A stretch of 59,809 nt of DNA from an uncultured archaeon (GTDB lineage: Archaea; Nanohalarchaeota; Nanosalinia; Nanosalinales; Nanosalinaceae), in NCBI GenBank assembly GCA_964629245.1, contig CAZVPZ010000001.1, positions 1 through 59,809 on the forward strand, in the 5' to 3' direction. A program made the translations under genes and the position numbers. The notes beneath the pieces are model-generated. The model worked only from the letters and a program-made list of their open reading frames with translations, did no database searches and had not been told where the DNA came from. Each line of letters begins with the position of its first letter. Position 1 is the stretch's first letter. Below, one piece after another: positions 13,777 to 48,299 of this stretch.

Positions 13777-13874
13777 GAAACGCCTGCGCCCGGATTGTGA
13801 ACGGAACTGATGTCAGTTCCATCAACAGGCCGGGTTCAAAGAACCCGGCATTGCGCAGTATTAGCGTAACAATA

Positions 13875-14031
13875 CGCCGGCGCCCGGATTTGAACCGGGG
13901 AGGGCCGTCACAGCCCAGCAGATATCTCGTTGTTCCAGGGCGTTTCATCATCGTGGCGTTCAGCCACTCGTGCACATCTGCTTGGCAACAGCTCGAATCT
14001 GCCGCGTTCAGCCAGACTCCGCCACGCCGGC
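13875..14031 (-). tRNA. tRNA-Ser(CGA) with a 68-nt intron at 37/38
   Basis: Hand fold: acceptor GCCGGCG/CGCCGGC, anticodon stem GCAGA/UCUGC, loop UUCGAG[intron]A. Long variable arm GGGCU..GGCCC, T arm CCCGG-UUCAAAU-CCGGG, discriminator G. Confidence 0.85.
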
Positions 14032-21000: not shown

Positions 21001-21116
21001 GTCTGGCAGCGTCCGCACGCTCCCGCCGGAAGGCAGTACTAATGCGATCGCTGAGGGACTTTACTTCCGTGTTCGGAATGGGTACGGGTGTTGCCCCCTC
21101 GCTGTGGCCGCCAGTA
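21001..21116 (-). rRNA. 5S rRNA (ends within about 5 nt)
   Basis: The minus strand reads CUGGCGGCCACAGCGAGGGGGCAACACCCGUACCCAUUCCGAACACGGAAGUAAAGUCCC...GCUGCCAG. The universally conserved CCGAACACGGAAG block is present. Helix I closes as CUGGCGGC/GCUGCCAG. Confidence 0.9.
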
Positions 21117-22757: not shown

Positions 22758-23324
22758 CTATATATCCTTCAGCGTCTTCTGCCCGCTCTCCTCCTTCCCG
22801 AATGCTTTACGCAGGTCTTTCTCTAGCTCTGGTCGCTTGGAGTTGTCGTAGAGAGTGGCGGCGGGATGGAACGTTGGCATTATCTTTCTCCCGTTTCTCG
22901 AAAATATCCTGCCGTGGATGGAGGTGATGCCTTTTCTGGTCCCGAGAAGCTGTCGGGATGCGAAGTTCCCGAGCGGGATGATTATCTCTGGGTCGACATC
23001 CTCTATCTCCATATCGAGCAGAGGTCGCCAGGCGTCTATCTCGTCTTTCCGGGGGTCGCGGTTCTCGGGTGGCCTGACCTTGACAAGGTTGGTTATATAG
23101 AGGTCGCTTCGCTCCACACCCATCTCTTCTAGTATCTCGTCCAGCTTTTCTCCCGCCCTGCCAACAAAGGGCTCTCCCTCCTCGACCTCGTTGGCTCCCG
23201 GCGCTTCCCCCACGAGCATGAAACGAGCATCCTTGGGGCCTGTTGGGGGTACGAAACGGTCTTCCAGGAAGTAACGGGTTTCCAGGTTATCGAAGAAGTC
23301 GCTGTACCGTTCCCTGAAGTCCAT
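22758..23324 (-). CDS. Uracil-DNA glycosylase, family 4-like, cysteine-free
   Basis: GEAPG..E...G.PFVGRAG motif A and HPAA motif B. The whole 188-aa sequence contains no Cys. Confidence 0.8.
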   Translation of the reverse strand: MDFRERYSDFFDNLETRYFLEDRFVPPTGPKDARFMLVGEAPGANEVEEGEPFVGRAGEKLDEILEEMGVERSDLYITNLVKVRPPENRDPRKDEIDAWRPLLDMEIEDVDPEIIIPLGNFASRQLLGTRKGITSIHGRIFSRNGRKIMPTFHPAATLYDNSKRPELEKDLRKAFGKEESGQKTLKDI

Positions 23325-23327
23325 GGC

Positions 23328-23558
23328 TCAGATTGCGCCCCTGATCTGGTTGGTGCCTTCCCTTTTGTTCCTCTTCGCCCAGAAAAGGAGGCCTACACCT
23401 AGTAATGCGGAGGGAACCGCCACTATCAGTCTTCCGGCAAACGTCACGTCCTGGACCTCGACTATCAGCGCCCCGATTGCAAAGATGATAAGGGCGATCC
23501 CCAGGAGGAGGCCGATAAGGTACTTTACACCGCTTGTTATCGAGACGAGCAGTTCCAC
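23328..23558 (-). CDS. Possible small 2-TM protein upstream of the UDG gene
   Basis: An in-frame GTG lies at 23558. The track ORF N-terminus (to 23705) runs through the tRNA-Tyr and its trailer, so it was trimmed. Confidence 0.3.
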   Translation of the reverse strand: MELLVSITSGVKYLIGLLLGIALIIFAIGALIVEVQDVTFAGRLIVAVPSALLGVGLLFWAKRNKREGTNQIRGAI

Positions 23559-23596
23559 GGGGAAGAATAGGGGGTGGAGTGATTTAAAACTAAATA

Positions 23597-23660
23597 TCCC
23601 GGCTCCAGGATTTGAACCCCGACGAAGATCGCAGATTTTCTGGAGGATATCAAATCGGGG
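23597..23660 (-). repeat. tRNA-Tyr trailer module ending in a second exact copy of the tRNA's last 22 nt
   Basis: 23597-23618 is identical to 23676-23697 (TCCCGGCTCCAGGATTTGAACC on the plus strand). It is preceded by a hairpin and a GATTTGA block homologous to the 25701-25769 module. Confidence 0.8.
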
Positions 23661-23675
23661 GGGAAGAAACGAATT

Positions 23676-23749
23676 TCCCGGCTCCAGGATTTGAACCTGG
23701 GACAAGTCGATCTACAGTCGACCGCTCTGCCAGACTGAGCTAAGCCGGG
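23676..23749 (-). tRNA. tRNA-Tyr(GUA)
   Basis: CCCGGCU-UA-GCUC..GAGC-G-GUCGA-CUGUAGA-UCGAC-UUGUC-CCAGG-UUCAAAU-CCUGG-AGCCGGG-A. The C1-G72 pair is typical of archaeal tRNA-Tyr. Confidence 0.92.
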
Positions 23750-23800
23750 AAAGACTTTCAGGCTTGACCGGTTAGCTCTTTGAGAAGCATCGGCTTCGTT

Positions 23801-23816
23801 CTGAGCTAGGCCGGGA
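23801..23816 (-). repeat. Copy of tRNA-Tyr positions -1 to +15 in the 5' leader
   Basis: CTGAGCTAGGCCGGGA versus CTGAGCTAAGCCGGGA (23735-23750), 15 of 16 identical. Confidence 0.75.
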
Positions 23817-23855
23817 GACCTGAAAACGACAGTATGAGACTGAGTGGTGAAGTTT

Positions 23856-25238
23856 TTAAGTGGATTCCTCAGGCTTGAATTCGGTGTTTATCTTTTCGCT
23901 GGTGGCTATCCTCTTGCCATCGACCTCGAGTTCGGCCCTTGGAAGGGTTATCCCCCCCTCGACCTCTACAATCGGTTTTATGCGGTACTCGAATACCCTC
24001 TGGTCGCCGGGCTCCAGTTCCTCTATTTCCCATGAAAGCCTTGTGCCGTTGTTTGTCTTCCTCACGACTGGTTTAGCCATCGAGAATTCTCTTTCCACGG
24101 ACGCTATATCAGGTATGAATTCCTTCACCTCGACATCTTTCAGGCTCCGGTTGGAGATGTTTTCAACCCCGAGGAAGACCTTCACACCGTTCTCATCTAC
24201 CTTGACACTCTTGGTGAAAAGGGCGGTTCTCTGTAGCGCCTTGAGGCCGGTCAGTCCAATGATGAGCATCACCAGGGCCACGCCAGGGATCCAGTAGTTG
24301 AAGGTATAGCTTATGATAGCGTCCTCTCCAGGCGAGGACTGGAATTTCCAGATGTACATCGTATCGCCACCGACCTGGATCTCTCTATCCGGTTTCTCCT
24401 CGAAAGCGACAATCGGCTTCAGGTAGGAGGGTATGGTCTCGTTCAGGGTTATGTTGGTCCTGACGTTACCCTGGTTTTCGGCCTTTATCTGTTTGGTATA
24501 GATGAATATCTTGTTCTTCACGCTCTCTGACCTCTGTATCCTTCTCTCCGAGCCGACCCGGATGGTCCTCGAGAAAGACTCTACCGTCTCATTGTTCTGG
24601 AAGACCTCAACTACCAGTTCTTTTTCCTCCGGGCCAGCATCCTCCGGTATCTTGAGCTGGAACTGGAATCTCACCTTGTCTCCCGAGTCCAGCGACATCC
24701 TGAGTTTCCTCCCATCTCGGACTGATTTCTCCTCCATAAGGCTTGCCGCCACCCTGTAATCCCGGAGTGAACGGGCCGCGGTGTTGTAGATAGAGGTGGT
24801 CGCCTCCACGGTTTCGCCGGGCATGTAATCCGTCCGGTTGAGGGATACCGATCTGATATTTAGGTCGAACTCTCTGTCTATCGAGAAGTAATCGTGGAGT
24901 TTCCTTGATTTCTCTGTTCCCGAGGCGCGGACGAAGACATCGAAACCGTAGTTCTGCTGTATCGCGTCTCTTGGAGGGGTTACTGTTATGCTGAAGTTTT
25001 CTTTCTCGCCCTGCTCAATCGTCTTTGCACCTTCAGAGTAGAACCAGGAGGACTGCCGGCTGGATATAGATACACTGAAGGCGTGGTCCTGTGTCAGGTT
25101 GTTCTTGACCTGGACACGGAACTCACCGGCATCGTTGGAGTTGGCTGACCTGTCCACCGCGTAGATGGATGCAGTGAAGCCCGACGCCTGTCCCACTATG
25201 AGGATGAAAAACACGGCCAGCAGGATATGTCTCTTCAT
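23856..25238 (-). CDS. Large exported/membrane protein with CARDB/DUF11-like beta-sandwich repeats
   Basis: Signal peptide and repeated V.V.N.G-type strands, with one TM near residue 320. The C-terminal domain is VENISNRSLKDVEVKEFIP... Confidence 0.7.
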   Translation of the reverse strand: MKRHILLAVFFILIVGQASGFTASIYAVDRSANSNDAGEFRVQVKNNLTQDHAFSVSISSRQSSWFYSEGAKTIEQGEKENFSITVTPPRDAIQQNYGFDVFVRASGTEKSRKLHDYFSIDREFDLNIRSVSLNRTDYMPGETVEATTSIYNTAARSLRDYRVAASLMEEKSVRDGRKLRMSLDSGDKVRFQFQLKIPEDAGPEEKELVVEVFQNNETVESFSRTIRVGSERRIQRSESVKNKIFIYTKQIKAENQGNVRTNITLNETIPSYLKPIVAFEEKPDREIQVGGDTMYIWKFQSSPGEDAIISYTFNYWIPGVALVMLIIGLTGLKALQRTALFTKSVKVDENGVKVFLGVENISNRSLKDVEVKEFIPDIASVEREFSMAKPVVRKTNNGTRLSWEIEELEPGDQRVFEYRIKPIVEVEGGITLPRAELEVDGKRIATSEKINTEFKPEEST

Positions 25239-25700: not shown

Positions 25701-25769
25701 AAATCCTATGGCAGGGCCGGGATTTGAACCCCGCGAAAATCATAGATTTTCTGAGGTTATCAAATCCTA
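25701..25769 (-). repeat. tRNA-Pro(CGG) trailer module ending in a second copy of the tRNA 3' end plus trailer (31 nt)
   Basis: 25701-25731 is identical to 25762-25792 (AAATCCTATGGCAGGGCCGGGATTTGAACCC). The internal 48 nt match the tRNA-Tyr module at 43 of 50 aligned positions (hand alignment). Confidence 0.8.
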
Positions 25770-25842: not shown

Positions 25843-25895
25843 AAAATCGTTCTACGATTTTGTTCGGGCCGAGAAAAACCTCTGGAGGTTTTCGG

Positions 25896-25905
25896 CCCCG
25901 CCAAA
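25896..25905 (-). repeat. Copy of tRNA-Pro(CGG) 5' end plus 3 leader nt (UUUGGCGGGG)
   Basis: CCCCGCCAAA also occurs at 25836-25845. The copy is followed on the minus strand by a long hairpin GGGCCGAAAACCUC-CA-GAGGUUUUUCUCGGCCC. Confidence 0.6.
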
Positions 25906-25969
25906 CTGCTGGCTTCTAGATAGGGAGTGGTGGAAAACTGTTTTAGTTTTTGGAGTAGAAACCGGGTTT

Positions 25970-28926: not shown

Positions 28927-28946
28927 AAAATTCTGGAAAGAATTTT
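28927..28946 (-). terminator. Hairpin plus U-tract after the tRNA-Pro(UGG) trailer module
   Basis: The minus strand reads AAAAUUCU-UUCC-AGAAUUUU directly after the second CCCUGCCA. Confidence 0.4.
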
Positions 28947-29022
28947 GGCAGGGCCCGGATTTGAACTTGAAGACAGGTCTTCGGCTGCTTCAAATCGCGG
29001 GCATATGCATCGCTGAAAGCGA
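28946..29022 (-). repeat. tRNA-Pro(UGG) trailer module ending in a second copy of the tRNA's last 21 nt
   Basis: 28946-28966 is identical to 29023-29043 (TGGCAGGGCCCGGATTTGAAC). The internal hairpin is GAAGAC/GUCUUC, with a GATTTGA block. Confidence 0.8.
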
Positions 29023-42138: not shown

Positions 42139-42342
42139 AGCCCCGAGTGGGATTTGAACCCACGACCTGCCCCTCTCTTACGCCAGAGCGGTTCGACTTG
42201 GAGGTCGCCTGCACTCCATTCTCGCTCCGCTCGAATCCGTAATCATGTTCTGAAAGCCATGCTTTGCATGGGTTGACATGATCGAACTTTGTGAAGTTCG
42301 CGATACAAGGGGGCCGCTCTAGCCAAGCTGAGCCATCGAGGC
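42139..42342 (-). tRNA. tRNA-Thr(UGU) with an intron of about 129 nt at 37/38
   Basis: GCCUCGA-UG-GCUC..GAGC-G-GCCCC-CUUGUA[intron]A-GGGGC-AGGUC-GUGGG-UUCAAAU-CCCAC-UCGGGGC-U. Confidence 0.85.
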
Positions 42343-48149: not shown

Positions 48150-48299
48150 TGGACCGGCCCGGATTTGAACCGGGGATCTCCACGTATCCAAGTTCGGGGG
48201 ACTGATTTCCGGAAGCCATGCATACCATGGCTTGACGCGTGCTAACTCCGCGTCAGGAGTTATCAGCGTGGCGCTCTAACCTGGCTAAGCTACCGGTCC
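48150..48299 (-). tRNA. tRNA-Ile(GAU) with a 75-nt intron at 37/38
   Basis: GGACCGG-UA-GCUU..GAGC-G-CCACG-CUGAUA[intron]A-CGUGG-AGAUC-CCCGG-UUCAAAU-CCGGG-CCGGUCC-A. Confidence 0.85.

Follow-up and report, generated by a model that had tools for sequence, protein, structure and literature searches.

A 59,809-nt stretch of DNA from a Nanohaloarchaeon (hereafter the window, meaning the whole stretch that was analysed) carries on its minus strand an intact tRNA-Tyr(GUA) gene without an encoded CCA. ARAGORN and Rfam agree on this gene (65.7 bits), which the preliminary description of this DNA had already placed at 23676-23749. The gene is accompanied by partial copies of its own two ends, a 5' copy (X) upstream and a 3' copy (Y) downstream, and our analysis identifies each of them as the distal arm of its own hairpin cassette, the two cassettes being independent and located one per end of the gene. 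The features of the locus are given below in the 5' to 3' direction of the tRNA, with X' and Y' denoting the antisense arms.

23852-23860, minus strand: TATA-like CTTAAAAAC, overlapping the stop codon of the upstream 460-amino-acid (aa) gene, putative promoter
23801-23816, minus strand: X, a 15/16 match to tRNA-Tyr positions -1 to +15, 5' arm of the leader hairpin
23784-23797, minus strand: leader apical stem-loop GAAGC-CGAT-GCTTC, found by folding, its stem covarying across 15 loci
23768-23778, minus strand: X', GAGCTAACCGG, antisense of X, 3' arm of the leader hairpin, found by folding
23755-23762, minus strand: spacer motif CCTGAAAG between leader hairpin and tRNA, also present in locus L010 (CCTGAAAG) and as a shorter CTGAAAG in L004
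23676-23749, minus strand: tRNA-Tyr(GUA)
23662-23675, minus strand: proximal trailer AATTCGTTTCTTCC, akin to ACTTCGTTCC in relatives (found in L001, L017, L020 and L005)
23650-23656, minus strand: core of Y', GATTTGA, antisense of the T-loop, 5' arm of the trailer hairpin, read in sequence
23624-23640, minus strand: trailer apical stem-loop GAAAATC-TGC-GATCTTC with one mismatch, read in sequence
23597-23618, minus strand: Y, an exact 22-nt duplicate of tRNA-Tyr positions 52-73, 3' arm of the trailer hairpin
23581-23596, minus strand: T-rich tract TATTTAGTTTTAAATC, likely terminator

Both copies noted in the preliminary description are real and above chance. The 22-mer GGTTCAAATCCTGGAGCCGGGA, which forms the last 22 nt of the tRNA from T-loop to discriminator, recurs exactly at an offset of 79 nt downstream. 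Its only two exact occurrences in the window are 23676-23697 and 23597-23618, shuffling the sequence 100 times produced no match, and the repeat reaches 26 nt if one mismatch is allowed. The 16-mer TCCCGGCTTAGCTCAG is the original of the upstream 15/16 copy, which is weak when taken alone (16 of 100 shuffles gave at least two matches at ≤3 mismatches) but credible because its position and sequence are kept in relatives. Each copy is a direct repeat of a tRNA end with one boundary in a tRNA loop, as is characteristic of attachment repeats, exact in the case of Y and 15/16 in that of X. Two features were absent from the preliminary description, namely a local antisense partner for each copy and the occurrence of the same design at other tRNA genes in the window.

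The leader runs in the order X, stem-loop, X', spacer, tRNA. It folds through CCGG:CCGG and UAGCUC:GAGCUA pairs at -19.8 kcal/mol (z = -2.45), and a leader covariance model matches the window at 23762-23821 with 50.4 bits. The C7 change in X sits in an internal loop of this local hairpin. The trailer runs in the order tRNA, short trailer, Y', stem-loop, Y. Here the window's Y' is decayed outside the T-loop-antisense core and the fold is no better than that of shuffles (z = -0.44), whereas relatives have longer Y' arms; in L005, Y' pairs over 17 nt with Y (-42.1 kcal/mol, z = -5.8). Counterparts of the trailer stem elsewhere include GAAAATC/GATTTTC, GAAGCTC/GAGCTTC, GAAAAC/GTTTTC and GAAGAC/GTCTTC, with at least six distinct stem sequences, every one self-complementary. 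X begins at +1 and Y finishes at the discriminator in nearly all loci, and the sequence between the repeats is only 50-57 nt, with no integrase or element body within it.

The TATA-like CTTAAAAAC is separated from X by ~36 nt in the window, and it or near variants were found in L001, L004, L010, L015, L017, L018, L019 and L021. The box lies ~32-45 nt 5' of X where a leader cassette is present and ~33-43 nt 5' of the tRNA where there is none, hence the leader cassette appears to behave as a 55-70-nt insertion within the transcription unit. The T-rich tract is kept in L001, there immediately after the proximal trailer. As the cassettes lie between promoter and terminator, they would be transcribed together with the tRNA, and the single transcript proposed in the preliminary description is plausible given the conserved box upstream and the T-rich tract after the outer 3' copy.

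Relatives were retrieved via the uracil-DNA glycosylase (UDG) gene (Pfam UDG) located 250 nt downstream of the tRNA. This search gave 25 Nanohaloarchaeal loci in species-representative genomes, 18 of them with tRNA-Tyr upstream, hence 19 loci when the window is counted. A leader hairpin precedes tRNA-Tyr in 14 of the 19 (covariance model, 15 hits), and the model gave zero matches outside tRNA-Tyr upstream regions in the 308 kb searched. Trailer hairpins with a full Y were present at six of the 19 loci, with remnants at approximately four more. The preliminary description had allowed that orthologous loci might lack the flanking copies; relatives carry them. Furthermore, X and Y carry the tRNA variant of their own lineage (CCCGGCT, CCCGACT, CCCGACC or CCCGCCC, acceptor and T-stem variants), and the leader apical stem covaries, with three pairs and 10 cells changed on both sides, a score reached by none of 500 shuffles. 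The CCTGAAAG spacer common to the window, L010 and L004 points to homology of their leader cassettes.

The surroundings of the gene are themselves variable. Across L001-L025, anywhere from 44 nt to 5 kb separates tRNA-Tyr from UDG, with a copper-ATPase block between the two genes in L010 and SAM (S-adenosylmethionine) synthetase plus other housekeeping genes in L018. This variable distance and these gene blocks make the 3' side of tRNA-Tyr a gene insertion hotspot, even without visible integrases. In the window, a lone 5S rRNA gene (21001-21115, minus strand) lies ~2.6 kb downstream of tRNA-Tyr, separated from it by the genes for UDG, an RsmB/F-like methyltransferase and a 147-aa open reading frame.

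The design is not confined to tRNA-Tyr, and three further tRNA genes in the window have trailer cassettes:

25701-25767, minus strand: tRNA-Pro(CGG) trailer cassette, GGATTTGA...GAAAATC-TAT-GATTTTC... and then a 30-nt duplicate of the tRNA 3' end plus 9 nt of flank
28946-28996, minus strand: tRNA-Pro(UGG) trailer cassette, GATTTGAA...GAAGAC-CTGT-GTCTTC... and then a 21-nt duplicate of the tRNA 3' end
13781-13820, minus strand: decayed trailer cassette of a Ser/Leu-like intron-containing tRNA, stem-loop GGAACTGA/TCAGTTCC followed by TTCACAATCCGGGCGCAGGCG

The cores of the Pro(CGG) and Tyr trailer cassettes are ~88% identical as judged by eye. The L005 ortholog of the Ser/Leu-like tRNA has an identical trailer layout, and the window's tRNA-Lys retains a cassette remnant from which the copy is missing. 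On the 5' side of tRNA-Pro(CGG), a leader at 25850-25915 (minus strand) opens with 10 nt duplicated from the tRNA start, TTTGGCGGGG, and continues with a GAAAACC/GGTTTTT stem-loop; it is a shorter form of the Tyr leader cassette.

Beyond the Nanohaloarchaea, metagenome contigs were scanned with the generic hairpin pattern GGATTTGA-N15-45-GGTTCAAATCC, and the 3' arm, extended by the following 10 nt to 21 nt, was tested for a copy upstream at ≤3 mismatches. At least 28 hairpins had an upstream direct copy of this 21-nt Y, exact in at least 21 of them. Among the matches listed, 27 of 28 lay in contigs of 53-72% GC, the copied sequence was the 3' terminus of a tRNA gene lying 72-142 nt upstream as measured from start to start, and at least 10 tRNA isotypes preceded the hairpins. 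Further high-GC hairpins failed the copy test, and all those checked also follow a tRNA. We presume that these brine-type high-GC contigs belong to Halobacteria. No 5' leader copies were seen in the high-GC loci examined. Downstream regions of high-GC tRNAs (L081, L102, L112, L189 and others) also contain recurrent small hairpins, several per trailer, with the loop GA(A/G)CG-N-(A/G)(C/T)GA, which would form tandem G-A closing pairs around a GNA triloop.

Stem-loop motifs of the cassettes recur in tRNA introns and in other leaders. AAGTT(C/T)GATCAT and GAGAAAAC...GTTTTCGA are common to introns, leaders and trailers of different Nanohaloarchaeal tRNAs (L017:3640-3820, L005:8440-8560 and window 42240-42310, minus strand), hence flank cassettes and introns may exchange parts. 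Regarding the introns themselves, two long-intron tRNA genes of the window (42140-42340 and 13877-14030, both minus strand) are visible only by their T-loop motif and escape ARAGORN and Rfam at gathering score, and a third intron-containing tRNA (48150-48299) was detected by Rfam only. The intron of the Ser/Leu-like tRNA (13930-13990, minus strand) contains C/D-box-like motifs (GATGATGA ... CTGA), which suggests that it may encode a guide RNA.

Comparison of close relatives shows that cassettes turn over. Between the window and its closest relative L001 (UDG identity 89%), the tRNA is identical (74/74) and the flanks are well conserved (73/85 or 86% upstream, 92/117 or 79% downstream), whereas the leader cassette body matches at only 15 of 41 positions. 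The L001 leader has an apical stem of a family known from distant lineages, and its trailer hairpin is missing as a whole unit, with the proximal trailer still adjoining the tRNA. Similarly, at tRNA-Pro(CGG) the window and L001 have the distal flank in common, yet one cassette is present in the window and two unlike cassettes in L001, of which the distal is truncated. This polarity is repeated elsewhere, with the distal cassette being the shared or decayed one in L001 versus the window at Pro(CGG), in L121 versus L153 and in the double leaders of L016 and L024.

Cassette families also cross between tRNAs, each time with a Y that is local to its gene. One family is present at tRNA-Tyr and tRNA-Pro(CGG) of the window, the Pro(CGG) cassette of L001 matches the tRNA-Tyr cassettes of L020 and L022, and the cassettes of L102 Arg, L194 Glu and L191 Ser form one family, proximal trailer included. 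The arrays in L121 and L191 consist of dissimilar cassettes, each terminating in Y.

We tentatively read these structures as small gene-less insertion cassettes that resemble folded attachment sites and that would be co-transcribed with the tRNA and trimmed off, an explanation we rank first while judging it somewhat short of probable. For the insertion mechanism, the enzyme and the transcription of the cassettes we infer the following. Miniature gene-less units aimed at tRNA gene ends would each comprise a short stem-loop flanked by two copies of the neighbouring tRNA end, inverted on the side of the tRNA and direct on the distal side. The X block ends in the D-loop and the Y block starts at the T-loop, which would correspond to the usual crossover places of tRNA-targeting tyrosine integrases, and the Y':Y duplex would rebuild the double-stranded target in one strand, as in folded single-strand attachment sites. 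New cassettes would insert beside the intact tRNA and older ones would be displaced outward and decay, as the comparisons above suggest. The transcribed leader and trailer hairpins would then be trimmed by RNase P and tRNase Z, leaving the tRNA unharmed. We favour this reading because of the D-/T-loop boundaries, the 22-nt marks of haloarchaeal integration (PMC3119063), a 5' tRNA fragment created by an insertion in Caldiarchaeum (PMC3293823) and the geometry of a palindrome beside a Phage_integrase gene in the bacterial viral contig L205. The anatomy, conservation, covariation, turnover and polarity of the cassettes are shown by the data above and, like the sharing of families between tRNAs and the breadth of the design, count in its favour. 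The preliminary description, in proposing a recombination scar or small mobile element, had the right direction, but two separate ~50-70-nt hairpin cassettes are present rather than one 220-nt element.

Several points weigh against insertion. The repeat block is anywhere between 21 and 30 nt long, whereas a target-site duplication would be of fixed length, and a cassette moved from one tRNA to another by a simple T-loop crossover would necessarily leave a chimeric 3' end. In several lineages the tRNA-Tyr leader cassette seems to have been inherited vertically, since the CCTGAAAG spacer is shared. Pfam searches detected no recombinase, transposase or full-size parent among the genes neighbouring tRNA-Tyr in the window, nor in the variable DNA 3' of tRNA-Tyr in L010 and L018. 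The halophile-type hairpin was absent from 112 viral-contig hits, which were mainly bacterial and unrelated, and the Tyr 22-mer was not found in viral contigs. Furthermore, in 23 of 25 hairpins from the high-GC loci the tRNA-sense strand gives the more stable fold, with 25 versus 7 G-U pairs. Covarying stems and this strand bias suit an RNA structure and a folded single-strand attachment site alike.

This last point leads to the main rival, that the hairpins are functional parts of the pre-tRNA, acting as end-protecting caps, termination aids or guides for RNase P and tRNase Z under the high salt of the cytoplasm. Selection would then keep the match to the tRNA end, for example where X and Y tie up antisense segments and thereby keep them from invading the fold of the tRNA. 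The placement of cassettes between a conserved promoter and a T-rich tract, the covarying stems, the sense-strand bias of the high-GC hairpins, copies that track lineage-specific tRNA changes and the spread of one design across two unrelated groups of salt-adapted archaea (the high-GC group presumed to be Halobacteria) all favour such a role. Nonetheless, the cassettes are dispensable, with the leader missing in five of 19 tRNA-Tyr loci and the full trailer in 13 of 19, including the closest relative L001, which lacks the trailer hairpin, and the window's own trailer is decayed. The Nanohaloarchaeal leaders show no sense-strand preference (favoured in only 3 of 16). A generic hairpin would suffice for protection, none of the known roles calls for the tRNA end to be copied exactly, and stacks of dissimilar cassettes in arrays are hard to account for. 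We regard a functional role as unlikely, though worth serious consideration.

A second alternative is that the copies are ordinary scars, in which full-size viruses or plasmids integrated at both tRNA ends and left attachment repeats, their bodies later shrinking by deletion to some tens of bases. In length and position, Y resembles the 22-nt and 43-nt attachment repeats of haloarchaeal prophages (PMC3119063), and the range of tRNA-Tyr to UDG distances among relatives marks a variable site. Random deletion, however, would not yield one hairpin design with covarying stems across lineages and tRNAs, and the proximal trailer of L001 adjoins the tRNA rather than following Y, which simple integration does not predict. 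Integrase remnants were found neither in the genes neighbouring tRNA-Tyr in the window nor in the L010 and L018 inserts, and we consider this explanation improbable.

Slightly more doubtful still is an origin as decayed tandem tRNA copies, that is, mini-tRNAs with an acceptor stem, a D- or T-arm half and intron-like stem-loops, kept similar to the gene by gene conversion. The L005 trailer can indeed be read as an acceptor-5'-like CCCGCUU, a T-stem-like CCGGA, an insert, T-loop, T stem and acceptor 3' strand. The leader retains a D-stem pair, GCUC/GAGC, stem-loop motifs are held in common with tRNA introns and other leaders, and genuine tandem tRNA-Asp genes occur in L103. Against this, Y' holds a T-loop antisense that is found in no tRNA, many Y' arms have no acceptor-like extension (L112, L194) and adjacent array cassettes are dissimilar.

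The preliminary description had offered as one reading a stem enclosing the tRNA, with the outer copies pairing as a 7-bp acceptor-like helix and a second ACGAAG/CUUCGU leader-trailer helix, as a tRNA-like or bulge-helix-bulge processing stem analogous to that of rRNA. X and Y are complementary by construction, ACGAAG/CUUCGU is complementary in the window and comparable arm pairs exist in L005, L020 and L022, but we think this model very improbable: the minimum free energy fold of the 233-nt unit is dominated by the local hairpins and lacks the outer helix, which C7 in X would break, every segment can pair more closely within its own hairpin so that neither of the two helices is necessary, most loci have just one of the two cassettes, the outer pieces match no tRNA model, and bulge-helix-bulge motifs occur at chance level only. 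For this last test, two 3-nt bulges on opposite strands with a 4-bp helix between them, formed by leader and trailer, were sought, and the strict scan of 23560-23860 yielded a single hit, which lay inside the tRNA, where shuffles averaged 0.57 each. No rRNA-like processing stem is present.

Other known structures were also considered. The outer pieces are no second or split tRNA, as the preliminary description had stated, with a permissive Rfam scan of 23300-24100 and ARAGORN both returning the inner tRNA only. A t-element, with its acceptor stem stacked on a T-arm and a free T-loop, was rejected as the T-loop copy is paired with GATTTGA and the cassettes match no Rfam tRNA or mascRNA model; indeed, no known RNA family was found by Rfam on cassettes in the window region and 12 high-GC loci. 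The ends are not inverted repeats as expected of a miniature inverted-repeat transposable element (judged by eye), nor do the repeat block of 21-30 nt and the confinement of leader model matches to tRNA-Tyr upstream regions fit one. K-turns, a Cm56 C/D-box guide and an H/ACA pocket were dismissed since the needed boxes and spacings are missing (by eye), derivation from mature tRNA fragments since CCA never follows Y, and a general enrichment of GAA...TTC hairpins near tRNAs since the pattern is too unspecific. A plasmid database gave no match to a high-GC tRNA-Pro cassette. We found no description of such cassettes in a literature search, whose coverage was incomplete, so that an earlier description is possible.

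Partial tRNA copies beside tRNA genes are usually attributed to large viruses or plasmids that integrated there. The present case differs in that the repeat belongs to a tiny, structured and gene-less cassette that duplicates the tRNA end in direct and in inverted orientation, occurring at both ends of the gene, turning over between close relatives and common in two unrelated hypersaline archaeal groups (the high-GC one presumed to be Halobacteria). If mobile, it would be a minimal tRNA-targeting element pointing to an unknown recombination activity, and it would link tRNA flanks with the stem-loop motifs of introns and leaders, bearing on the origin of archaeal tRNA introns and gene fragments. 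If functional, it would represent a new type of pre-tRNA leader or trailer element. Either way, tRNA annotation is affected, as partial copies can be called as pseudo-tRNAs, and so is the calling of provirus boundaries in halophile genomes. More speculatively, and with considerable doubt, salt-adapted archaea may host a whole new class of gene-less folded-attachment-site cassettes, recombining as single-strand hairpins with the D- and T-loop ends of tRNAs, building polarised arrays and riding in pre-tRNAs, as an archaeal counterpart of the integration of integron attC sites or CTX phage.

Among known systems, tRNA-like processing elements include plant mitochondrial t-elements, mascRNA and an element upstream of 5S rRNA in Haloferax, all of which mimic the acceptor and T-arm. 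The cassettes share with t-elements the mimicry of tRNA ends by non-tRNA sequences in transcripts handled by RNase P and tRNase Z; t-elements, however, fold as cloverleaf mimics, whereas the cassette T-loop is paired to an antisense arm and no tRNA-like model matches.

The attC sites of integrons and the phage attachment site (attP) of CTX phage are imperfect hairpins in which the stem rebuilds a recombination target, so that the structure of one strand is selected. Integration yields the order body, inverted arm, loop, direct arm, chromosome, and gene-less units stack beside a fixed site. The cassettes are likewise imperfect hairpins, with stems that would rebuild their target, are gene-less and are stacked beside a fixed site. 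They differ in that their proposed target is the end of a tRNA gene instead of attI or dif, their hosts are archaeal halophiles, and no integron integrase or Xer-type partner was identified for them.

A closer geometry is found in bacterial viral contigs. At L205:8780-8837, 57 nt from a Phage_integrase gene, lies a perfect palindrome, GGATTTGAACCGTGGACCTCTGG-loop-CCAGAGGTCCACGGTTCAAATCC, to which ~90 other loci are similar. Palindromes of this kind make up a large bacterial family (L201-L312, GC ~0.62) and are often situated near contig ends. No whole tRNA was present near the palindrome in the four viral contigs checked (L205, L208, L225 and L251). The palindrome looks like a hairpin-shaped attP, and like the cassettes it reads as an inverted T-arm copy, a short loop and a direct T-arm copy continuing to the tRNA 3' end. 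Its arms are perfect over 23 nt and it sits on viral contigs of 10-40 kb near an integrase, whereas the halophile cassettes are chromosomal, imperfect and gene-less.

Within archaea, prophage and plasmid ends in Haloquadratum walsbyi have 22-nt and 43-nt duplications of tRNA 3' ends (PMC3119063). These haloarchaeal attachment repeats resemble Y in being ~22-nt repeats of the tRNA 3' end from the T-arm, located 3' of an intact tRNA and of local sequence, but they enclose 5-50 kb with an integrase, whereas in the cassettes the repeats are separated by 55-57 nt of gene-less hairpin, an inverted copy is present and a mirror-image cassette lies on the 5' side. On that 5' side the nearest parallel is Caldiarchaeum, in which a 5' tRNA fragment lies upstream of the full gene with a 1.8-kb recombinase element between them, and insertions, introns and tRNA fragments have been proposed to be linked (PMC3293823). 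The tRNA-Tyr locus has a comparable upstream 5' fragment, and in place of the 1.8 kb and its recombinase the leader contains a 50-nt hairpin with an antisense copy of the tRNA start.

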